Below, piece by piece: positions 15,622 through 60,336 of a stretch of DNA of 64,000 nucleotides; position 1 is the first letter of the stretch; each line of letters starts with the position of its first letter. A model generated the notes under the pieces. It was given only the letters and a program-made list of their open reading frames with translations, did not search any database and had not been told where the DNA came from. Made by a program: the position numbers and the translations under genes. The stretch is from a virus (taxonomy: Duplodnaviria > Caudoviricetes): the IMG/VR virus record IMGVR_UViG_3300022666_000111. One strand, written 5' to 3'.

Positions 15622-16821
15622 ATGGGATGTTTTGACTACACATGTGCCGTTTCCGGCCTATCCATAGGAGGAGGGGATCGAGTGCGTTATCTCCTCTTGA
15701 ACGAAAACCCGCATCACAACCCCGCCGAGCACGCGTGTTACATTGACGGTCGGTGGGCGCCTCGGACGATACCGATCCGAGCAAATTACAATGACTACGG
15801 GACCATCGAGGACTACAAGGAGGACATCTTTGTCAAGGTCATCACGGAGCAATTCAAGCAAGACTTGATCACCCGTGGAGTCGGGGAGAACCAGTGTCAC
15901 GACATCGCCGTCACGCGGGACATGTCATTCAAGGGCTTTCTTGAGGCCATCTGGGAGGGCAGGGTGCTTGTAGGCCACCAGCCCAGCGGCGTTAAGATGA
16001 AGCGAAAGGCGCCCCCGAAGGGAGTCCCCACCATTCGGCGCGTTTGCAAGGCGCTCCAAAAGGCGGGATTCACCGTCCAAGGGGAGTTCCAGGGCTACCT
16101 CGTGAGCCTTCAGAAGAGGGGATTCGTGCGTGTACGCTGCGCAGAATTCCAGAACCAAATCGAGCACCTTGAGAAGGCCGCCAAGGCCCTCACTGAGTAC
16201 GCCACGATGATCACGGTCGCCAAGGATTTGAGCAACGGCGGTGACCTCATCGTTGGCCCGAAGCCAGGACGTTACGAGGGCATCTCCTTCGCCAAGCTGC
16301 GTGAGGATCTGCATCGCCCACGCTACGTCGCCCAAGCCATGATCCGTGAGGACGTGTGGCAAGCCCTCTGCAACCTCCGCCCAATGGACGAAGGCGGGTC
16401 ACAACCCCTCCAATGGTTCAAGGATGGCATTCGAGGTGTTCTGGCCAAGCTCGAGGAGATTCGGAAGGCGGATCCCCGGGACGCCTTCCGTCTTGACCTA
16501 GACCTTCGACATGGCAACGAATTCATGCTCTACCGTTACCTCCAAGGCCCCGGGGTCGTAGGCGGGATCACCGAGGCCCTCGAGGTCTTCATCGGCTTGA
16601 ACCCGACCGCCGAAGAGAAGGAAGAGGTCATCAACACGCTCGGGGAGCTAGCCTACATCACGGACGTGCTCAACAACGTCCGCTACCAGTGGCACCCCGG
16701 GAGCGCTAACGGACCGCAATGCGGTGCCTGGCGCGACCACAAGCAGTACCTCCAAGCGTTGGCTGGAGTCGCCGACGCCATAGTCCAAGAACACGAACGC
16801 GAGGGGTTCTACGACCCGTAA
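15622..16821 (+). CDS. Phage hypothetical protein
   Basis: MGCFDYTCAVSGLSI..GD.V and YNDYG motifs; SD GAGG. Confidence 0.75.
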   Translation: MGCFDYTCAVSGLSIGGGDRVRYLLLNENPHHNPAEHACYIDGRWAPRTIPIRANYNDYGTIEDYKEDIFVKVITEQFKQDLITRGVGENQCHDIAVTRDMSFKGFLEAIWEGRVLVGHQPSGVKMKRKAPPKGVPTIRRVCKALQKAGFTVQGEFQGYLVSLQKRGFVRVRCAEFQNQIEHLEKAAKALTEYATMITVAKDLSNGGDLIVGPKPGRYEGISFAKLREDLHRPRYVAQAMIREDVWQALCNLRPMDEGGSQPLQWFKDGIRGVLAKLEEIRKADPRDAFRLDLDLRHGNEFMLYRYLQGPGVVGGITEALEVFIGLNPTAEEKEEVINTLGELAYITDVLNNVRYQWHPGSANGPQCGAWRDHKQYLQALAGVADAIVQEHEREGFYDP

Positions 16822-17265: not shown

Positions 17266-18228
17266 ATGAGCTTTCACAAATACCCATCCATTGTTCTCCT
17301 CCGCGATCGGCAAGACCTCTTTGCCGTCAAGGAGGTCGTTTGCACCGAGAAGCTCCACGGGAGCAACTTCCGGATTCACTTCCCCTGCGGCATGACGAGC
17401 CTCGACGAGGTGCAATTCGGCTCCCATGACGTCGAGATGACGCCCGGTGAGCCCTTCCCCCTTGGCGTCGCCGTCAACTGGTTCAAGGCCCGGCCCAACC
17501 TCTTGCAATCCATGTGGGACGTCATCAAGAGCTACGGCTTCTCGGAGGCGACCGTCTACGGTGAAGCCTACGGCCCTGGGATCAAGGCCAAGGGGATCCG
17601 CTATTCGACGGGGACTGAGATGCTCTTCCGCGCCTTCGATATCATGATCGGGGACAACTTCTTGACCTATGACCTCTTCGTCGAAGTCACGGACAAGATG
17701 GGGCTCAACCGCGCCCACCTGGTCTACAAAGGCCCACCAAGCCAAGAGGCATTCGACCAGCTCCTCGAGGTCCCGTCGCTCGAGGCCAAGCACAACGGAA
17801 TCAACGACCCCGCCAACATCGCCGAGGGGATCGTCATTCGGAGCAACCCGCTCTTCCGTGACGTCTTCGGCGATTGGCTCATCGCCAAGCACAAGGCTGC
17901 CAAGTTCTCAGAGGTCGCGAAGCAACGGCCCCCGAAAGGCCCACGATCGGCTACGCCCGCCGATGAGTTCGCCTTGACCTGTGTGATCGAGGGACGCGTC
18001 CGGAACGCCGTAGGGCGCCTCCAGGACCGAGGCGTGGCCCTCACCATGACGATGAAGGACATGCCCGTACTGCTTGACGAGATGATCGCCGACCTCGACA
18101 AGGAATGCCGGAGCGTTTGGGAAGAGATCGCTCCAGACAAGCCCTTCCAAGAGGCCCTCAATAAGGGCTCCATCAGCCGCGTTCTTGGCCCGCTCTTCCG
18201 AAAGATGCTCGAGGACAAGTCGCTATGA
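17266..18228 (+). CDS. RNA ligase, Rnl2 family
   Basis: EKLHGSNF (motif I), YGEAYG, FRAFDI, EGIVIR, KHK. Confidence 0.9.
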   Translation: MSFHKYPSIVLLRDRQDLFAVKEVVCTEKLHGSNFRIHFPCGMTSLDEVQFGSHDVEMTPGEPFPLGVAVNWFKARPNLLQSMWDVIKSYGFSEATVYGEAYGPGIKAKGIRYSTGTEMLFRAFDIMIGDNFLTYDLFVEVTDKMGLNRAHLVYKGPPSQEAFDQLLEVPSLEAKHNGINDPANIAEGIVIRSNPLFRDVFGDWLIAKHKAAKFSEVAKQRPPKGPRSATPADEFALTCVIEGRVRNAVGRLQDRGVALTMTMKDMPVLLDEMIADLDKECRSVWEEIAPDKPFQEALNKGSISRVLGPLFRKMLEDKSL

Positions 18229-25426: not shown

Positions 25427-25882
25427 ATGCCAACCCTCATCGCCGAATTCGCCTTCACCAAACAAGGCCAACACTGCATCACCCTCAACCGCCCACCCGT
25501 TACCCCTACGCCCGGTATGCACCTCAAAGCACAAACCGGCGAACAGGCAACCGTCCTCTCCGTCGAACGTATGCAGAAGGCTACAGGCCCAGGCAATAAC
25601 TGGGTCCTCACCCTCACTCAACCCCTCCCAGCCAATACACCCCTAGAGGCTACACCAGCCCAACGCCCCGAAACAGGCCCTATGGCTTTCGGTTCCGACT
25701 GGCCAGGCGTCTTCATCCGAGGCGATAACGCCCTCGCCTATACCCTAGCCCTCCAAAACGCCCTCAACCAAGACCCCGACAACCTCGAACTACGCTCCCT
25801 CCTGAGCTTGCTCTCCTCCTGCCAATGCCCCGCACCCACTACCGTACACCTCAACCCCTTCACCGAATGCTTGCCCAAATGA
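25427..25882 (+). CDS. Hypothetical protein
   Basis: RPETGPMAFGSDWPGVFIRGDNA; leaderless after GGTGTAG. Confidence 0.65.
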   Translation: MPTLIAEFAFTKQGQHCITLNRPPVTPTPGMHLKAQTGEQATVLSVERMQKATGPGNNWVLTLTQPLPANTPLEATPAQRPETGPMAFGSDWPGVFIRGDNALAYTLALQNALNQDPDNLELRSLLSLLSSCQCPAPTTVHLNPFTECLPK

Positions 25883-26070
25883 ACTACCTCATCGTCCGTA
25901 CACACGAGAACGGCGAAGTGTCCCTCCAGTACGCCGCTACCCTACGCGACCTGGAAACCCTCGCCAACGAAGACCCCAACCCCAACAACCCCACCGTGAG
26001 CATCCAACGCTACGCCCTCCTCCCCTAACGATTCCAGTTGATCCCCCACCCCCTCACGCATGTAGCCACC

Positions 26071-31615: not shown

Positions 31616-32308
31616 CTAGAAAAGGTCTTCGTCCATGAGCTTGTCGTAAGCGGTGTGGACGGGGTCGGCGGTCATCCGCGTTGGGGCGACGATCGCGTAG
31701 TTCCAATCGTTGTACAATTCGGGGAGGGCGACCTGGATGAATTCGGGCTCGTTATGAGGGTACGGGCTTCGGGGGAGCCCGAGCGTAACCACGGGGATAC
31801 GGGCCATCCTTCCGGGGGCTTCTTCGATGGTGCTTAGGGATGCCACAATCCTGTAAGACTTGCGCATATCCGGGGGCGCCCAGATTTGACCCTCTTCGAC
31901 GGTGTGGCAGAGCACGCATTCGTAGTAGAGGTGCTGCTCCTGCGGATCGTCGTAGGACGACGCGAGGTTGCGTCGTTGGAGGTTGTAGCCCTCCCCGTAA
32001 TGCACGCCGACGCCGATGCGGGGTTTCATGAGGTGGATGACGCCTTCGGAATCCCGAAGCCAGCATTCCTTCGTGATCGGCTTTCTGGGGTCAAAGCTAA
32101 CGTGCCCCTCATAGACCCAGCCCCGGGCGCCTACGAGAATGAAGCCTCTCCGGAGGTCCGTATTCGAGACACGGACCTCGATGAGGTCACCAATAGGCTC
32201 GGGGCCGAGGATCTGTAGGGTAGCCTGGTCGACGGTGACGAAGTCGATGTCGTGCGACTTGTTTTGGTCGTAGATGTTGAGGATCCGGTGCCGGAGGGTC
32301 TTTCTCAC
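31616..32308 (-). CDS. Hypothetical protein with C-terminal acidic tag
   Basis: Ends TAYDKLMDEDLF. Confidence 0.7.
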   Translation of the reverse strand: MRKTLRHRILNIYDQNKSHDIDFVTVDQATLQILGPEPIGDLIEVRVSNTDLRRGFILVGARGWVYEGHVSFDPRKPITKECWLRDSEGVIHLMKPRIGVGVHYGEGYNLQRRNLASSYDDPQEQHLYYECVLCHTVEEGQIWAPPDMRKSYRIVASLSTIEEAPGRMARIPVVTLGLPRSPYPHNEPEFIQVALPELYNDWNYAIVAPTRMTADPVHTAYDKLMDEDLF

Positions 32309-33651
32309 GGGATCTCCTTGGCGAGGCGGAGGAGGGTTTCACGTTCGTTGAGGGAGGGGTCGTCGGTCACGGATTCGAGGAGTGCATTGAGGACGCGGCC
32401 GACGCGGGGGCCTGGGGCGATCCCGAGGGCCTCCATGACGTCGCGGCCGTTGATGACGAGGACCTTCGTGGAAGTTGGGATGGTCTCCGTCACGCTCATC
32501 CGTGCGACCCGATCGCGGAGGGCGTCGATGAGCGTCTCCTCCAGGGCGACCTTGGCGGGGCCTTTGCCGTCGATGTCTGCGTGGGCCAAGGTGCAGAAGT
32601 CGGGGACGTTGTCGAGCCCAACCTTGCGGACCCAGCGGCGGACGGCGGGGGCGCCGTGGTCAGCTTCGTAGCGGATGTAGTGGTGCCGCACGAAGTGAAC
32701 GATCGCTTCCAAGTCTTCCGTGGCGAATCGCAGCCGGGTCAAGATCTCCCGCGTCATGTCAGCCCCTACGACCTCGTGGTTGTAGAAGGTTGCGTCTCCT
32801 GTCACCGGGTGGGCCTCCTTCACGGCGGGCTTGCCGATGTCATGGAATAGGGCGGCGAAGCGCAGCAAGGGCTTCGTAGCCGGGACACGGTCAAGCGTAA
32901 CCAAGGTGTGCTCCCACACGTCGAAGGCGTGGTACTTGTTCTGGGCGCACCCAAAGCTCGCCTTGAATTCCGGAATGAAGACCTCGAGCATCCCCGTCTC
33001 CGCCATGACGCGGAAGGCGACCGAAGGCTTGACCGAGCCCTTCATGATCTTGAAGAGTTCGTCGTGGACGCGCTCGATCGAGACTTTCGAGAAGACTTCG
33101 AGGTTTGGGCGAATACCCTCGAGGGTCTCGGGTTCGATGCTGAAGCCCAGGGTTGCCGCGAATCGGGCGGCGCGCATGACGCGCAAGCCGTCCTCGTGGA
33201 ACCTGCGGCGGGGGTCGCCTACGGCTCGGATGACTTTGTTTGCGATGTCGGCCATACCTCCGAAGGGGTCGACGGTTCGGTCGTCGATCGGGTCGTAGGC
33301 GATGGCGTTCATGGTGAAGTCGCGCCGGGCCAGGTCGTCTTCGATCCGGTCGAGGAAGCTCACAGCGTCGGGGCGTCGTCCGTCCGTGTAGTCCCCGTCC
33401 CCACGGTACGTCGTCACCTCGAAACCGGTACCGTCCACGATGGCCGTCACGGTTCCATGTTGGATGCCGGTCAGGATGACACGGGGGAAAATGCGGAGCA
33501 TGACTTCTGGGCGGGCGTTGGTAGCGATGTCCCAGTCATGGGCTTCTCGGCCCATGATGAAGTCGCGGATAGCGCCACCGACCAGGAAGGCTTCGTAGCC
33601 CTCACGGCGGAGGGTCTGGCAGATACGGAGTGCTTCGGGAGGGATTTGCAT
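32305..33651 (-). CDS. cca: CCA-adding tRNA nucleotidyltransferase with HD domain
   Basis: VGGAIRD, DWDIAT, DLARRDFTMNA, EDGLRVMRAARF, HDIGKP; leaderless class-1 promoter. Confidence 0.92.
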   Translation of the reverse strand: MQIPPEALRICQTLRREGYEAFLVGGAIRDFIMGREAHDWDIATNARPEVMLRIFPRVILTGIQHGTVTAIVDGTGFEVTTYRGDGDYTDGRRPDAVSFLDRIEDDLARRDFTMNAIAYDPIDDRTVDPFGGMADIANKVIRAVGDPRRRFHEDGLRVMRAARFAATLGFSIEPETLEGIRPNLEVFSKVSIERVHDELFKIMKGSVKPSVAFRVMAETGMLEVFIPEFKASFGCAQNKYHAFDVWEHTLVTLDRVPATKPLLRFAALFHDIGKPAVKEAHPVTGDATFYNHEVVGADMTREILTRLRFATEDLEAIVHFVRHHYIRYEADHGAPAVRRWVRKVGLDNVPDFCTLAHADIDGKGPAKVALEETLIDALRDRVARMSVTETIPTSTKVLVINGRDVMEALGIAPGPRVGRVLNALLESVTDDPSLNERETLLRLAKEIP

Positions 33652-43076: not shown

Positions 43077-44612
43077 TTAGTCCCCCCACCCAAACGGGTC
43101 CTCGTTAGCAAGTCGTTCGAATGCGTCCTTTCGCTCCACACGCTTCCACGTGCCGCCCTCAAGAAATGCCCTGGCGGAGGCTTGCACACGGATGCCGTTT
43201 GAATCCTCGAGGGTGGCTATGCCCAGAGCAGGGTCAAGGAGGGCGACCGTGTAGCTCACTCCCTTTTGGTCAATCCACTCTTCACCCACGTGGCATTCAA
43301 GAGGAATCACGCGTTCTTCAACTTGCGTGTAGTTACGCCACAAGTCTGGGATCAGCATCCGTAAGATGTGCCCGTCAGCGTTACGGACGGCCACGTGGCG
43401 CATCCCTTCGACGACGTCCGAATCGGTGATGACCACGAGGGCTCCATTGCCTCGGCACACCCAAATGCTTCCGATTGGCGGGGCAGCTTCCTCGTCGAAC
43501 CGGATGTAGTCACGCACGAAGGCCATGAGCGGGATGGTCCCCGGGGTTCCAGCCTCGTCCGTGACGTTGACTTGACAAGGGGCGCCCAAGCCTTGACCGT
43601 GCCCGTTCACTGTGATGAAGGAGCCGTCCGATCGGGGGTTCCTCCACATAGAGCCGCTTGGTGGCGCCACGTCGGCGATAGGCCGGAAGCCACGCTCGAA
43701 GTCCTCCTGGGTGACGACGATCCTTTCCGAACCTACGTGGTGCCCTACGCGGTCAAGGATACGCCCGGAGCCTCCGAAGGAATGATGCGCATAGGCGACG
43801 TAGTCCGTGAGGCGAATGAATTGATCGCCTTGAGGCATGGTGATGTTCGTCGTATTGGCAGCGACGATCGTTACGGGGCCTGGGCTGACTATGACGGGGA
43901 GCCCAGCGAACATACGCCCGCCGCCATGAACGGTCCCTCTTGTGACGAGCGTACGCATCCCCCCGCTATCATGCAGGGGGATCTGGCTGTTATCCAAGAC
44001 GACAAGGTTGCACGTGGATTCGTCCATGCGAACGAAGGTAGCGTTGCGGCCGTTGACCCGTAGGCGACGGCGCGCTTGGGAGACGGCGTCCCCCATACGC
44101 TGCATCGGGACTGAGCTATCAAGGGTCTGCCATTGGGCCTGGCATTGGGGGCACGTTGAGCGGACGCCCTCAAGGTGTGATCCGCAAGACGGGCAAGAAG
44201 AAAGGTTCGGTCCTGGAGGGAACTCCTCCCGAGAGGCAGCAGCGGCTATGCCCGGGATCACCGTTGACGTGGGATCGTCCCCGGGGAAGTACGTAGGCTG
44301 GTTGATGGAGATGTGCCGGTGACAGACCCTCCGTATGACGCCCTGAACGGACTGCCGCAAGAAGGAGACCTCTTGGCAGCCTTGTGCTTCACAGAGCTGG
44401 ATCTCTCCTTCTTGGGGTATGGGCGTGATTCGCGCGAGCCGCCACATGTGAAGCATGGACCGGATGGGCATACTTGTGCTGCGGCCCGTTTGTGAAATAA
44501 GAAGAGCAGTGTCACCGTCCGAGGATATCGCGGCGACACAACCGAGCATCGTGTTACCCTCGAACGATTGTGTACTCCAGACCTCACCACGGACAGGGTT
44601 ATCAGCAGGCAT
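43077..44612 (-). CDS. Mosaic protein with several SH3-like repeats, zinc fingers and acidic tag
   Basis: GEVW, GSMW, GSIW, GEEW units; CPSCG..CPQC; DAFERLANED. Confidence 0.7.
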   Translation of the reverse strand: MPADNPVRGEVWSTQSFEGNTMLGCVAAISSDGDTALLISQTGRSTSMPIRSMLHMWRLARITPIPQEGEIQLCEAQGCQEVSFLRQSVQGVIRRVCHRHISINQPTYFPGDDPTSTVIPGIAAAASREEFPPGPNLSSCPSCGSHLEGVRSTCPQCQAQWQTLDSSVPMQRMGDAVSQARRRLRVNGRNATFVRMDESTCNLVVLDNSQIPLHDSGGMRTLVTRGTVHGGGRMFAGLPVIVSPGPVTIVAANTTNITMPQGDQFIRLTDYVAYAHHSFGGSGRILDRVGHHVGSERIVVTQEDFERGFRPIADVAPPSGSMWRNPRSDGSFITVNGHGQGLGAPCQVNVTDEAGTPGTIPLMAFVRDYIRFDEEAAPPIGSIWVCRGNGALVVITDSDVVEGMRHVAVRNADGHILRMLIPDLWRNYTQVEERVIPLECHVGEEWIDQKGVSYTVALLDPALGIATLEDSNGIRVQASARAFLEGGTWKRVERKDAFERLANEDPFGWGD

Positions 44613-44646: not shown

Positions 44647-45048
44647 ATGAAGATTCTAGTGACCGGCTCACGAGAATGGTGTGACGAGGCTCTCGTGGCC
44701 AAGGTGCTCGCCAAGTACCCCAAGGGGACGATCCTCGTCCATGGTGATGCGCATGGGGCTGACCGTATCGCCGCCAAGGTCGGCAGAAAGCTCGGCTTCG
44801 ATGTCCGACCCTACCCGGCTAACTGGGACGCCTATGGCAATGCCGCAGGACGCTTGCGCAATCAGGAGATGCTCGACAAGGAGGGTCCATTCGACGAAGC
44901 CCTTGCCTTTCATGACGACCCCAACCTGGGAAAGGGCACCTTTGATATGGTCATCCGGCTCAAACGCGCCAAGACCTCAACCAGAGTATTCTCGCACGCG
45001 TTCCCCGAAGGAAAACTTCTCGACGAGGTTGACAGCTCTCCGGTGTAG
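44647..45048 (+). CDS. SLOG family protein (YspA/DUF2493-like)
   Basis: KILVTGSR.W, LVHGDAHGAD, AAGRLRNQEM, GTFDM. Confidence 0.85.
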   Translation: MKILVTGSREWCDEALVAKVLAKYPKGTILVHGDAHGADRIAAKVGRKLGFDVRPYPANWDAYGNAAGRLRNQEMLDKEGPFDEALAFHDDPNLGKGTFDMVIRLKRAKTSTRVFSHAFPEGKLLDEVDSSPV

Positions 45049-45069
45049 GGTTACGGTGAGGCAACCACC

Positions 45070-45162
45070 ATGATGCACTTCTGGTAAATACGCGGTCCAC
45101 CGATCTCCCAGTCATTTTCCACCATGACTGTACGGTGTCTTTTAGTAAATGACAGGAGATCG
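45070..45162 (+). promoter_or_regulatory. Leader peptide with in-frame UAA plus RGPP motif and RBS-sequestering structure
   Basis: ATG ATG CAC TTC TGG TAA ATA CGC GGT CCA CCG; CGATCTCC (45101-8) pairs with GGAGATCG (45155-62). Confidence 0.7.
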
Positions 45163-45165
45163 AAG

Positions 45166-45543
45166 ATGACAACACGTAAGCAAGCAATTCTCAAGATCCG
45201 CGAAACACTCAAGCTCCACGTTGCCGCCGCCCACGAGGCGCGTCGCCGCATCCAAGAGAAGAAGATGGAGCCCTCGAGCCCTGCCCGGGGAGCTGCCCTC
45301 ATGAACCTCTGGGGTGAGAAGCGCTACGCCCAATCCGATCGGCGTGACTGCTGCCTCGCTCTTGCGTACCTCCGGGGGCGCTCCTACGCCGCTTGTGAGC
45401 GCGCGCACGGGTCGAAGCCCTACGCTGGGGCCGTCGCGAGCCTTCTCAAGGAGGCTGGGATCCTTGTGACCAAGGAGATGGTTCAAGCCTGGGTTGACGG
45501 CGCAGCGCCCGCCATGCCCGCAACCGAAGAGGTGGCTGCATGA
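45166..45543 (+). CDS. Phage hypothetical protein (LAYLRGRSY..CE motif)
   Basis: SD GGAG at 45155; first gene under the leader. Confidence 0.75.
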   Translation: MTTRKQAILKIRETLKLHVAAAHEARRRIQEKKMEPSSPARGAALMNLWGEKRYAQSDRRDCCLALAYLRGRSYAACERAHGSKPYAGAVASLLKEAGILVTKEMVQAWVDGAAPAMPATEEVAA

Positions 45544-45980
45544 GGACCATCTCTGAAACGAAGACCGTCCCGGCCGAGGACGTCACGATCACGACCTACG
45601 GATGCGACGAGTGTGAATTCGTCGCAGACCACAAGGAGCAGGTCGAGAGGCACTTTGCCGAGACGCACGCTTGCCGCAAAGAGGCGGAGGTTGGGAACAG
45701 CACGCTCCGTTGGTTCAAGACGGAAGAGGACGCCAAGGTCTGGCTTCGACGGAACGAGGATTGGTACCGCGTCCAAGAGGTCACGTGGGAAGGCCCGGGT
45801 TGGTATGCGTCGGAGACGTGGTCGGAGCCCTGCCCCAAGGGTTGCTGCACCGACCATTGCATCCGGCTCTACCCTGCGGAGTCCAAGGTGAACAACGCGG
45901 TCTACGAGGCGCGGGAGATCATGCAGCAAGTCGCTGTGCTCCGAAAATTCCTCAAGGAGAACGGCGATGCGCCCGGATGA
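45540..45980 (+). CDS. C2H2 zinc-finger-like hypothetical protein
   Basis: CDEC...HFAETH; ATGA coupled. Confidence 0.6.
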   Translation: MRTISETKTVPAEDVTITTYGCDECEFVADHKEQVERHFAETHACRKEAEVGNSTLRWFKTEEDAKVWLRRNEDWYRVQEVTWEGPGWYASETWSEPCPKGCCTDHCIRLYPAESKVNNAVYEAREIMQQVAVLRKFLKENGDAPG

Positions 45981-46296
45981 CAAGCTCTATCTCGTGACCC
46001 GGGCGGACCTCGCGCCCGGGGCGCAGGCGGTCCAAGCAGCTCACGCGCTCCAGCAATTCAACGTGGAGCACCCTGACACTGCGCGGGCTTGGCATACGGA
46101 GAGCAACTACCTCGCCCTGCTCTCCGTTCCAAACGAGGCGCGGCTTGCGGAGGTTCTTCGAAAGGCAAAAAGGCGGGGGCTTGAAGCCTCCGCCTTTCGG
46201 GAGCCAGACTTTGGGGATGCTCTTACGGCTATCGCAATCGCTCCGGGGGAGGATGCCCGCGCTATCACACGGTCCCTCCCCCTCGCCCTTGCTTAG
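45967..46296 (+). CDS. Peptidyl-tRNA hydrolase, Pth2-like
   Basis: KLYLVTRADL.PG.QAVQAAHA...F.EPD.....TAIA. Confidence 0.8.
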   Translation: MRPDDKLYLVTRADLAPGAQAVQAAHALQQFNVEHPDTARAWHTESNYLALLSVPNEARLAEVLRKAKRRGLEASAFREPDFGDALTAIAIAPGEDARAITRSLPLALA

Positions 46297-46804: not shown

Positions 46805-46833
46805 TTGACTCGAACCCAGAATGGTGCTACGTT
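46805..46833 (+). promoter_or_regulatory. Sigma70-like promoter of the HNH gene
   Basis: TTGACT-17 nt-TACGTT with TGn extension; ATG 6 nt downstream. Confidence 0.55.
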
Positions 46834-46839
46834 CCGGGT

Positions 46840-47523
46840 ATGAGTTACTTTTGCGACGATGCTGAGTTCACACGGCTGGCGGCCCTTAGCCGGTCTCCTT
46901 CAAGTCTTGTTCGCCTGTTGGGTCGGGCGGTCGGGGGGAATAATGTCGAGCTGGTCAAAAGAGAAGCGGCCAGGCTTGGGCTTGACACGTCCCATTGGAA
47001 CGGGGCTGGGAGGGTCCTTCCGAAAGTTGGATCCTCCCAAGTGCTGATCGAAAATGGCGTACATGCTACAAGTGTCGTCAAACGGGTTGTGCTTCGAGAG
47101 CGCCTGATCCCCTACACGTGCGCCCTTTGTGGACGTGACCCAGAGTGGAATGGGCGCCCCTTAGTTCTTCGGTTAGATCACGTGAACGGCGTACGCACGG
47201 ATCACAGGATCACCAATTTGCGCTTCCTGTGTCCCAACTGCGATTCCCAAACGGAGACCTATTGTGGTGGGAACCGGCGCATCTACAAGGATCACAAGAG
47301 GTGCTCTTGCGGTGCCGTGATCCAACGTCGAAGCACGGCTTGCAAGTCGTGCTCGGTTAAGGCTCGAAACCAGCCCCCAAAGGCGGAGTGGCCCCCGGAT
47401 GCAGAGCTTCTAAGGCGTGTCCGGGAGTCATCTTTCTTGGCGGTTGCACGTGCGCTCGGTGTATCAGACAATGCAGTACGGAAGCACATGCGGGCTCGTC
47501 ACCTAGTGGTCGAAGGTAGCTGA
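46840..47523 (+). CDS. HNH homing endonuclease
   Basis: CALCG...LRLDHVNG...NLRFLCPNCDSQT; C-terminal zinc finger and HTH; overlaps tRNA 5' end. Confidence 0.9.
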   Translation: MSYFCDDAEFTRLAALSRSPSSLVRLLGRAVGGNNVELVKREAARLGLDTSHWNGAGRVLPKVGSSQVLIENGVHATSVVKRVVLRERLIPYTCALCGRDPEWNGRPLVLRLDHVNGVRTDHRITNLRFLCPNCDSQTETYCGGNRRIYKDHKRCSCGAVIQRRSTACKSCSVKARNQPPKAEWPPDAELLRRVRESSFLAVARALGVSDNAVRKHMRARHLVVEGS

Positions 47524-47583
47524 TTTTAACCCAGCCGCAGGGTAATACCGCCAACGAGGGTTCGAATCCCTCCGAGCCCACCA
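47492..47583 (+). tRNA. Class II tRNA, anticodon UUA (ochre suppressor candidate)
   Basis: GGGCTCG/CGAGCCC-A-CCA, D stem ACCT/AGGT, loop TT-TTA-AC, long variable arm, GAGGG-TTCGAAT-CCCTC. Confidence 0.85.
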
Positions 47584-47597
47584 CATGAGATGTCCAA

Positions 47598-47637
47598 GAA
47601 CCGCGCGTCGCGGGTTCAACTCCTGCCGAGGGCACCA
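47598..47637 (+). pseudogene. 3' half of a tRNA gene
   Basis: GCGGG-TTCAACT-CCTGC-CGAGGGC-ACCA with no matching 5' half. Confidence 0.75.
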
Positions 47638-49894: not shown

Positions 49895-50360
49895 TGGTTC
49901 ATGTCTCCGAGAGGTTTCTCTTCCGGGGCTGGTATGCCGGTGGGGTAGAGGGATCAACGTATTTGGGGTGGGGAAATGAATTTGACCGTGAAATCAGATG
50001 CTGTCTTGGCGATCATTGATGCAGAGGTATTGGGACCGAGGGCACCCAGAAAACCGTTGATCACGGAGCCCGTCCGGCATGTTGGGCACATGGAGAGCAT
50101 CGACTTCCAAATCGCAAGAATGGCCCAGGCTTTTGACCTTGGAATCAGCGACGAAGTCGCTGTGAGCATCCTGGCTAAGGATGACATCACGGGGGCCGCC
50201 GCCTTCTACATCATCCAGGCTGCGCACCTGCTATCAAACGATCGCGGGTGAATTCCCTGGCGCCAAGGTTCGGAACGGTGTAGGTAATGCCCGTGCCGTA
50301 ACTTTGGCCCACACGGGCATGCTGGCAACACTTGGCGGCTTCGGCCGCATGGAGGATCAA

Positions 50361-51944
50361 ATGGCAAGCAAGATTCTGTTCCCAGGGGCGAAGCCGTCTG
50401 TTCAGGCGGCGGACACGGTCAACGAGGCGGGTGGGGCGGCGTACCAGATGACGCCAAAGATGGCCCTGGCTCAATTGGCGGTGACGGGGTGCCTGTCCAA
50501 TACGTACTACGTGTCGGACAAGATGCAGCTCGAGGCCGTCTTGAACGCAGCCGTCGCGTGCGATCCGGAGTACGTTGCGAAGGTGGCGCTCTACGCACAC
50601 GAGAAGGGCTTCATGAAGGACATGCCTGCGGTTCTTGCGGCCTACCTGGCTGCGATGAATGGGGCGCTCCTCGAGCCCATCTTCCCGCGTGTCATCAACA
50701 ACGGCAAGATGCTCCGCAACTTCGTCCAGGTCATCCGGTCTGGCGCGTTGGGGCGCAAGAGCTTCGGAACGCGTCCGAAGAGGATGATCCAGAGCTGGTT
50801 CGAGAGCCGTAAGGACGGCGTGGTCTTCACGAACTCCACGGGTAACGATCCGTCGATGGCGGACGTTATCAAGCTCATCCGGCCGGTTCCGGGGACGGTG
50901 GAGCGTTCGGCGCTCTATGCCTACCTGCTTGGGAAGGACAAGTTCAAGTTCCAGGGGCAGGAGCTGGTGACGTCGGAGCATGTTCCGGAAGAGGTCAAGA
51001 GCTTCCTGGCATTCAAGGCGGACCCGGCCAAGGTTGCTGTCCCGGAGAAGGGTGTCCCCTTCGAGATGCTCGTCGGTGTTGAGGGCATCACGGAGAAGGG
51101 CTGGAAGCAGCTTGCGGAGAGGGCTACGTGGACGCAGCTCCGTATGAACCTCAACACGTTCCTGCGTCACGGGGTCTTCTCGGACAAGAGGCTCACCAAG
51201 AAGCTGGCCGACAAGCTCGGATCGGCGGAAGAGGTTGCGAAGGCACACTGCTTCCCCTACCAGCTCCTGGCGGCCTACAAGAACGTGGGTACGGAGATGC
51301 CCACGGAGATCACCCTGGCGTTGCAGGACGCCTTGGAGGCTGCTACCAAGAACATCCCGGTGTTCGCGGGTTCGGTCGTGATTTGCCCGGACGTTTCGGG
51401 CTCCATGTCAGCCTACGTCACGGGACGTCAGGGCAGCAAGACGCCTTCGAAGGTCACCTGCATTGACGTTGCAGCCTTGGTTGCAGCGAGCGTCTTGAGG
51501 ACCAACCAGACTGCGAGGGTCATCCCCTTCGAGCAGAGCGTGGTTGGCGTCAAGGTCAATCCTCGCGATTCGGTCATGACGAACGCGCAGAAGCTTTCGT
51601 CCATCGGCGGAGGCGGGACCAACTGCTCGGCGCCCCTGGCCTTGCTCAACAAGGAGAACGCCGCGCCGGATGTGGTCATCTTCATCTCGGACTACGAGTC
51701 ATGGGTTGATCGTGAGTACGGGCACGGTACTGGGATGCTCACGGAGTGGCAGCAGATCGTCAAGCGTAACCCCAAGGCCAAGCTGATCTGCATCGACGTG
51801 ACGCCTTCGTCCACGCACCAGGTCCCAAGTCGTCCTGGGATCCTTCAGGTCGGCGGGTTCTCGGACGAGGTCTTCAACGTCATCGGGGCCTTCGTCTCCG
51901 GCGACGCCTCGAGTTGGGTTGCCTCGATCGAATCCTACAAATAG
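50361..51944 (+). CDS. Ro60/TROVE-vWA RNA-binding protein
   Basis: NEAGG.AY, LRMNLNTF.RHG, FPYQLLAAY, DVSGSM, GGGT.C, ISD.ESW, GGFSD.VF. Confidence 0.92.
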   Translation: MASKILFPGAKPSVQAADTVNEAGGAAYQMTPKMALAQLAVTGCLSNTYYVSDKMQLEAVLNAAVACDPEYVAKVALYAHEKGFMKDMPAVLAAYLAAMNGALLEPIFPRVINNGKMLRNFVQVIRSGALGRKSFGTRPKRMIQSWFESRKDGVVFTNSTGNDPSMADVIKLIRPVPGTVERSALYAYLLGKDKFKFQGQELVTSEHVPEEVKSFLAFKADPAKVAVPEKGVPFEMLVGVEGITEKGWKQLAERATWTQLRMNLNTFLRHGVFSDKRLTKKLADKLGSAEEVAKAHCFPYQLLAAYKNVGTEMPTEITLALQDALEAATKNIPVFAGSVVICPDVSGSMSAYVTGRQGSKTPSKVTCIDVAALVAASVLRTNQTARVIPFEQSVVGVKVNPRDSVMTNAQKLSSIGGGGTNCSAPLALLNKENAAPDVVIFISDYESWVDREYGHGTGMLTEWQQIVKRNPKAKLICIDVTPSSTHQVPSRPGILQVGGFSDEVFNVIGAFVSGDASSWVASIESYK

Positions 51945-60009: not shown

Positions 60010-60336
60010 TTACTCGCACTTGTGCTTGCGGGCCTCTTCGATCTGATCGCAAGAGGTGACCTTCAAGACGCACTTGGGGTTGAGCCAGACGCCGTTATCC
60101 TGCATCTTGCGGTAAGCCGCCTCGCAGGTGGTGTTGGGGACGTCTTTCGGCCCAGGCACGTCCGAATCGTAGACGTCGTTGCCTTCCTCACACTTGAGCG
60201 CCTTGAGGTGTTGGCACATGGCCCCCAACAAGTCACTATCCGCCGCAGGCACAACCCGAGGCGTCGGCGCGGGGTTGCTTGCGGGGCAAGCGGTCAGAAG
60301 GAGGAGCGCTGCGATGGCTAGAATTTGGGTCTTCAC
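60010..60336 (-). CDS. Cys-rich lipoprotein
   Basis: GTG start, ILAIAALLLLTAC lipobox. Confidence 0.7.
   Translation of the reverse strand: MKTQILAIAALLLLTACPASNPAPTPRVVPAADSDLLGAMCQHLKALKCEEGNDVYDSDVPGPKDVPNTTCEAAYRKMQDNGVWLNPKCVLKVTSCDQIEEARKHKCE

Follow-up and report, generated by a model that had tools for sequence, protein, structure and literature searches.

Transfer RNAs (tRNAs) that read stop codons have been described in large bacteriophages that keep the standard genetic code. Phage XacN1, which carries two such tRNAs with CUA anticodons and also encodes a peptidyl-tRNA hydrolase, combines a well-formed stop-reading tRNA with a genome that still uses the stop in question, and its authors identified no target gene (PMC5852040). 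Phage G likewise has a stop-reading tRNA (Sup:UUA) in a standard-code genome, and the accessible part of its description names no target (PMC12484599). The locus considered here lies on a 64,000-nucleotide stretch of a Caudoviricetes genome (IMG/VR virus record IMGVR_UViG_3300022666_000111; this whole stretch is called the window). It resembles both cases in encoding a stop-reading tRNA with anticodon UUA (47492-47583, plus strand) in a standard-code genome, and differs from XacN1 in having a specific target that co-varies with the tRNA. The likely target is the UAA codon of a short leader in front of an operon that includes a gene for a Pth2-like peptidyl-tRNA hydrolase. With fairly high confidence, the ochre suppressor tRNA is proposed to be the key of a translational switch on this operon and not a recoding tool.

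Several other systems share parts of this arrangement. In the autoregulation of prfB, a tRNA and a release factor also compete at a stop codon, although that system relies on a frameshift, unlike the window. The ochre suppressors of E. coli derived from tRNA-Tyr (supC) have a UUA anticodon, a class II body, A73 and U35, as does the window tRNA; they are laboratory point mutants of a housekeeping tRNA, whereas the window tRNA is a conserved extra gene with a mixture of Tyr and Ser identity elements. The arrest peptides ApdA, ApdP, ApcA and SecM (RQH family; PMC10951233, PMC10987492) share with the window an upstream open reading frame (uORF) that carries an R-x-P-P motif and is placed to unmask the next start. 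The window leader differs from them in its length of about 11 residues, in lacking a secretion signal or membrane anchor, and in having gene A, gene B and a Pth2-like gene downstream instead of sec or yidC, and a role as a Sec/YidC monitor was rejected for these reasons. Its motif is gated by an upstream stop, whereas the arrest peptides are released by pulling force. The outcome at the E. coli PepNL leader (PMC11890864) depends on whether a tRNA or a release factor wins at a stop codon, as is proposed for the window; there a host near-cognate tRNA is involved and read-through prevents arrest, whereas the window encodes a dedicated cognate suppressor whose read-through would lead to arrest. 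Suppressor-timed gene expression has likewise been proposed for recoded phages (code 15 crAss-like and Lak phages, and code 4 phages; 10.1101/2021.08.26.457843, PMC13037316), but there the recoded codon occurs in many late genes, whereas the window shows the standard code and one leader target, and for its codon, UAA, no recoding has been reported. Suppressor tRNAs, RAPP attenuators and read-through-controlled leaders are each known; a literature search, which covered few subscription journals, found no description of their combination into a switch.

A stop-gated leader that co-varies with the tRNA

The leader is a uORF at 45070-45102 (+) reading MMHFW-UAA-IRGPP, with its UAA at 45085-87, 2.4 kb from the tRNA gene. 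Read-through would join the five leading codons to a RAPP-like motif (45091-45102), giving a product of 11 residues, and this is the only M..TAA..R-x-P-P form within the window. A sigma-70-like promoter sequence precedes it (45029-45057, +; TTGACA, 17 nucleotides, TACGGT); it falls below the threshold of the promoter scanner, which returned no site at threshold, and its -35 box is kept in the related phage L102 and in many related leaders. Downstream lie gene A (45166-45543, +), encoding 125 residues predicted to form a helical hairpin and a small helical domain, and gene B (45540-45980, +; 146 residues), which overlaps gene A and is not conserved at the corresponding position of L102. They are followed by the predicted Pth2-like gene (45967-46296, +), whose product matches PF01981 above the cut-off (E 1.4e-8) and also solved Pth2 proteins, with the archaeal GK and DAG motifs altered in the alignment. 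Gene A carries a conserved motif, R..LA..LRG..Y..E, and stands behind a stop-gated leader in nearly every relative; it belongs to no Pfam, PHROG or Atlas family, has no match among cultured phages, and its fold matches only a generic coiled-coil. In L102 the first five leader codons and the TAA are kept and RAPP replaces RGPP, and the related locus L001 pairs a TAG leader with a CUA tRNA.

The link between leader stop and anticodon was followed through 80 viral loci collected by the Pth2 protein profile alone; these were recovered by an alignment search, single-protein queries with Pth2 or gene A having been unsuccessful in viral contigs. A stop-anticodon tRNA lies within 10 kb at 64 of the 80 loci. 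An M..stop..RGPP-type leader was found at 19 loci and at none in the mirrored control; one of the 19, a TGA leader in L155, later proved to be a false match, the true L155 leader having TAG. Many other Pth2 loci carry a stop within the first codons of Pth2 itself. When the loci, with the window and L102 included, are grouped into 62 clusters at 80% identity, both a gating stop and a suppressor are present in 41, and codon and anticodon match in every one of them (TAG/CUA 34, TAA/UUA 6, TGA/UCA 1). Gate and suppressor co-occur with a Fisher p of 0.0096, a value uncorrected for kinship. Six of the eight clusters scored as having a suppressor without a gate have TAG leaders before gene A that match their CUA tRNA, and one of the remaining two is cut off upstream. 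In the Pth2 tree, whose deeper branches are poorly resolved, gate stop and anticodon differ together between the sisters L120 and L126 (support 100/97) and again between L168 and L176 (99/84). This co-variation supports an earlier note on the same DNA, made from the sequence alone, which had taken the tRNA for a conditional or regulatory suppressor in a genome without global recoding and had thought it plausible that the leader UAA at 45085 is the codon it decodes.

The gated loci vary in form. Two TAG stops stand in series before RGPP in five leaders (L110, L116, L134, L159 and L160), three of which have a GFT/EFT-like spacer end. In the phages of low GC (guanine plus cytosine) content L112, L123, L141, L154, L165 and L181, the leader is reduced to M-x-H-TAG-x-RPP with another stop behind it, and the position of gene A is often downstream of Pth2. 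About 100 nucleotides before a TAG-gated Pth2 (L135) lies a set of tRNA-like stems (L199:1456-1545) that has a CUA loop but an unusual D arm and is called by neither ARAGORN nor Rfam. Finally, L191 (JBBACR010000001.1; 425,361 bp), from a metagenome-assembled genome assigned to Pacearchaeota, has the size and the gated Pth2 of the viral contig L125 and is probably a mis-binned phage.

The geometry of the leaders points to the position of the ribosome as the output. Directly behind the leader stands a member of a single gene family, gene A, and in 17 of 18 leaders the distance from the Pro-Pro codons to its start codon is 49-65 nucleotides; as in RAPP attenuators, a conserved R-x-P-P in a uORF thus stands at a fixed distance from the downstream start. 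The frame from leader to next gene is 0, 1 or 2 in 8, 3 and 7 cases, respectively, and several leaders are closed by a second stop. Because this frame varies, the switch is predicted to act through ribosome position and not through a fusion protein.

In the folding model, the spacer between leader and gene A forms a long hairpin that covers the Shine-Dalgarno sequence; in the window (45101-45162, +) it pairs the sequence just 3' of the Pro-Pro codons with the GGAG of gene A. With a 29-nucleotide ribosome footprint, the modelled median cost of opening the ribosome-binding site over the 18 leaders is 12.7 kcal/mol for the free RNA, 11.5 with a terminating ribosome (p 0.62) and 5.3 with a ribosome at the second Pro, the last being lower in 18 of 18. 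The corresponding values for the window are 13.4, 11.0 and 6.8 kcal/mol, and in the model the cost starts to fall some four codons ahead of the stall site. The second hallmark of RAPP attenuators, a hairpin over the ribosome-binding site that a stalled ribosome opens, is seen in the folding model only. The leader would thus behave as an attenuator of the arrest-peptide kind, with the ochre suppressor of the phage as its key.

In the proposed switch, host-type transcription would produce an operon mRNA in which the ribosome-binding site of gene A is folded away. Ribosomes on the five-codon leader would usually terminate at the UAA, leaving the hairpin intact and the operon off. If the suppressor reads through the UAA, the ribosome would most likely stall at RGPP and loosen the hairpin over the ribosome-binding site, and gene A, gene B and the Pth2-like gene would then be translated, coupled through their overlapping stops and starts. 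The switch would be a readout of the frequency of stop read-through; the inserted residue, most likely Tyr with Ser close behind, would probably be irrelevant, and two serial stops would sharpen the response, as in a threshold design. The trigger preferred here, though tentatively, is failing or overloaded termination, to which an operon for recycling peptidyl-tRNA would be the response. A developmental timer that depends on how fast the tRNA matures is a more doubtful candidate, and a sensor of tRNA charging is less likely again. The termination gauge is favoured over the timer and the charging sensor because the operon ends in a gene of the Pth2-like class, linked to ribosome rescue in jumbo phages by Iyer et al. 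(PMC7824862). We infer expression, charging, suppression, stalling, translational coupling, the trigger and the function of the operon from this arrangement.

Several points weigh against such a switch. Both release factors read UAA, and the combination of A31.C39 with C38 in the tRNA may weaken decoding. The leader product would have only 11 residues, and the window hairpin ranks 9 of 101 among the starts of the genome, which is strong and not extreme. The concordance between gate and anticodon is mostly one of TAG, is uncorrected for kinship and may reflect perhaps four to five independent switches, and the phage L102 was found through its anticodon arm, so that its anticodon match arises by construction. 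Six gated clusters have no suppressor called within 10 kb, and a pattern search of five suppressor-less gated records gave only atypical CUA-like stems that neither ARAGORN nor Rfam calls. It has also been shown that RAPP-like motifs in ordinary proteins mostly do not stall ribosomes and that upstream residues matter (PMC10987492).

Structure, selection and identity of the tRNA

The earlier note had suggested ARAGORN as a check, and the program calls a tRNA-Stop(tta) at 47492-47583 (+), the sole tRNA that it finds in the window. The same class II tRNA gene scores 53 bits with Rfam RF00005 (E 1e-9), where the gathering score is 29. Every structural element that the note had listed is present: a complete cloverleaf (pairs 7/4/4+1/5), G1-C72, A73 (47580), an encoded CCA (47581-83), a 20-nucleotide variable region, the A-C mismatch (A31.C39) and the seven-nucleotide loop UU-UUA-AC with the anticodon at 47526-28. 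Further pairs are G15-C48, C11-G24 and G30-C40. The 92-nucleotide tRNA is unchanged in L188, an independently assembled strain from a separate sample (JGI; 341,626 bp) that is 99.1% identical to the window, with 36 differences over 4 kb, and the anticodon is the same in L189, from a third sample; L190, which is 100% identical to the window and probably the contig it was taken from, was not counted as independent. Since the L188 tRNA is identical and the L189 anticodon is the same, the UUA anticodon is no assembly error. The tRNA is thus read as a nonsense (ochre) suppressor that would be charged and would insert a residue at UAA.

Relatives of this tRNA suggest that its cloverleaf is under selection. 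In L102, a phage with the same gene order that lacks the HNH endonuclease gene preceding the tRNA in the window, the UUA tRNA is 84% identical, and further long-arm tRNAs occur in L108 and L174 (UUA) and in L001 (CUA). Compensatory, two-sided changes are seen in 15 of 27 pairs among the five long-arm relatives, well above shuffled and slid controls, a count that comes from five related sequences and is not a probability; C11-G24 and G30-C40 are invariant among them, and the two-sided changes are the reason to regard the cloverleaf as selected. Mismatches at 31-39 are found in 23 of 73 stop-anticodon tRNAs as against 26 of 377 other tRNAs (p 6e-8), and in 10 of 99 other tRNAs with A36. Because such mismatches are over-represented among stop-anticodon tRNAs, A31.C39 is not a sign of decay, and it may tune suppression strength. 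The 17-nucleotide anticodon arm has 85 metagenome matches, of which only L068 and L102, overlapping copies from one phage, are tRNAs, the exact tRNA pattern has no match in viral contigs, and a BLAST search of the tRNA against GenBank phages gave only a 31-nucleotide T-arm match.

The earlier note had left the body as Tyr-, Leu- or Ser-like; Tyr and Ser stand, and Leu falls away. A naive Bayes classifier on structural positions, with the anticodon excluded (70 of 72 correct on leave-one-out, mostly with phage tRNAs), scores the window tRNA at -37.3 for Tyr, -45.8 for Ser and -57.0 for Leu, and it ranks Ser first for the L102 tRNA, which has G73 and A3-U70. Judged by a published table of identity elements (PMC9976931), the window tRNA has the Tyr-tRNA features A73, U35 and a long variable arm, with U34 in place of G34 and three unpaired bases 3' of the variable stem, where 12 of 14 reference Tyr tRNAs have two. 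Elements that it shares with Ser tRNAs are C72, G2-C71, C11-G24, G30-C40 and again the long variable arm; departures are A73 in place of G73 and C4-G69 in place of R4-Y69 (PMC9976931). A Leu body is unlikely because the tRNA has G15-C48 and no A20a, whereas Leu elements include A15-U48, present in 40 of 40 reference Leu tRNAs, and A20a (PMC9976931). The three unpaired bases after the variable stem match none of Tyr, Ser and Leu. The inserted residue may be Tyr, with Ser very nearly as plausible and any other residue unlikely. Pyl, Sec and allo-tRNA identities were rejected, given the anticodon UUA and the canonical 7/5 acceptor/T arm. When all suppressors are taken together, 27 have A and 25 have G as discriminator, and the majority have a class I body; given this mixture, the inserted residue is not conserved, and selection probably acts on read-through itself.

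Genetic code and rival explanations

The window belongs to a large phage genome of about 340 kb, a near-identical assembly measuring 341,626 bp. Among the 102 genes that a codon-model gene call predicts in the window, 63 end in TGA, 27 in TAG and 12 in TAA, and the 12 include all five TAA-ended genes that the earlier note had named. Reading TAA as sense adds the least open-reading-frame coverage of the three stops over the window. For the TAA-ended gene at 15682-16821, the ends of 58 homologs, which had likewise been predicted with the standard code, roughly coincide with its own (median overhang 0 residues). Many conserved genes with an in-frame stop codon, as in recoded phages, are not seen in the 64 kb. 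The phage thus appears to use the standard code with TAA as a functioning stop, in keeping with the note's view that there is no global recoding. TAA-recoded phages are also absent among 10,754 jumbo phages (PMC13037316), and in a crude coverage test no related locus gained specifically from the codon of its own anticodon.

Other explanations of the locus carry far less weight than the switch. The least improbable is that the leader gauges host termination through near-cognate host tRNAs, while the phage suppressor does another job, such as general read-through or the diversion of release factors or of host anticodon nucleases as a decoy, and is only a companion of the operon. The six gated clusters without a called suppressor would fit this, as would the control of the PepNL leader by host-tRNA read-through (PMC11890864) and, according to the accessible part of that report, the ability of phage tRNAs to counter defence systems such as PARIS (PMC11464382); however, the 41 of 41 gate-anticodon matches and the joint changes in sister pairs would be left unexplained. 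Still less probable is read-through that makes longer proteins, either an N-terminally extended gene A product or TAA-ended genes fused to the next. The leader is in frame with gene A in the window and L102, and where the stop lies inside the Pth2 start, read-through makes Pth2. In addition, three of the 12 TAA-ended genes (25867-26028 on the plus strand, 43077-44105 and 60010-60219 on the minus strand) run in frame into the next gene, compared with four of the 90 ended by TGA or TAG. However, the leader is out of frame in 10 of 18 cases, several leaders end at a further stop, read-through would run into an arrest motif, homologs of one TAA-ended gene end at the same place, and the 43077 junction, the only one compared, is out of frame and has TAG in L102.

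It is very improbable that the tRNA has no function and is a decayed or hitch-hiking gene, a mutant of a Tyr, Ser or Leu tRNA that travels with an HNH element. The A31.C39 mismatch, the imperfect variable stem, the overlapping HNH frame and a tRNA remnant behind the gene are what such a history would leave, but L102 has the same anticodon without HNH, compensatory changes run throughout the cloverleaf, and the 31-39 mismatch is characteristic of these suppressors. An early or regional recoding of TAA elsewhere in the genome, as in code 15 or code 4 phages, is given the same slight chance: TAA is the rarest stop in the window, and Borges et al. proposed suppressor acquisition as a step before recoding (10.1101/2021.08.26.457843), yet the 64 kb hold no sign of TAA as sense, and both the jumbo-phage survey and the coverage test speak against it.

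Neighbouring elements and the significance of the switch

The HNH endonuclease gene (46840-47523, +; phrog_10822) belongs to a family whose members lie immediately upstream of tRNA genes in phages. A promoter-like site (46805-46833, +; TTGACT, 17 nucleotides, TACGTT) with a weak -10 box, below the scanner threshold, stands ahead of it and of the tRNA. At the 5' end of the HNH gene, most differences between L188 and the window are in the third position of codons and only two amino acids change, and the gene is therefore a maintained one; since it is absent from L102, it is regarded as a passenger outside the switch. The HNH frame ends inside the tRNA both in the window, with a TGA stop, and in L001 (2983-3660), and in both the HNH message would lose its stop codon when the 5' end of the tRNA is processed. 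Behind the tRNA lies an orphan 3' half of a second tRNA (47610-47637, +), consisting of a T arm, an acceptor strand and ACCA. The final A of this ACCA also begins the ATG of the following gene, and the half is most like the class I CUA tRNAs of L122 and L134. Because this half meets the following gene in the way that the tRNA of L102 does, the HNH-tRNA unit probably displaced an older tRNA of which it is the remnant. Elsewhere the window encodes a Ro60 vWA protein (50181-51944, by Pfam) and, at 32305-33651 and 17266-18228, proteins with motifs that we take to be those of a CCA-adding enzyme and an RNA ligase; the three together would form an RNA repair set, and the Pth2-like protein is encoded in the same window.

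A simpler, amber version of the switch is held by cultured cluster C mycobacteriophages, which makes it experimentally testable. Catera (NC_008207; L195:3960-4680) has a TTGACA promoter and an in-frame ATG-TAG at the head of Pth2, and Phabba (NC_054714; L196:3960-4540) has the same promoter box with GTG-TAG. In this cluster, a CUA tRNA labelled tRNA-Arg in GenBank lies 150-290 nucleotides downstream, and a GTG directly 3' of the TAG could also serve as the start; 206 Mycobacterium phage records have this Pth2. Many phage Pth2 starts, and annotations such as 'tRNA-Pyl' and 'tRNA-Arg', may accordingly have been misread.

The retention of stop-reading tRNAs by standard-code jumbo phages is an acknowledged gap, to which this locus offers a specific and falsifiable answer, and the switch would join suppressor tRNAs, RAPP arrest peptides and phage Pth2, until now studied apart. 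As a tentative generalization, giant phages of many hosts may carry such a natural and self-contained sensor, composed of a dedicated suppressor tRNA whose amino-acid identity is interchangeable, one or two gated stops and an arrest motif, that gauges the contest between tRNA and release factor and switches on an operon for ribosome and peptidyl-tRNA rescue when termination or tRNA supply is attacked. If this is true, the sensor would account for the majority of orphan suppressor tRNAs in phages with the standard code, and the switch would be a possible starting point for the evolution of genome-wide recoding.
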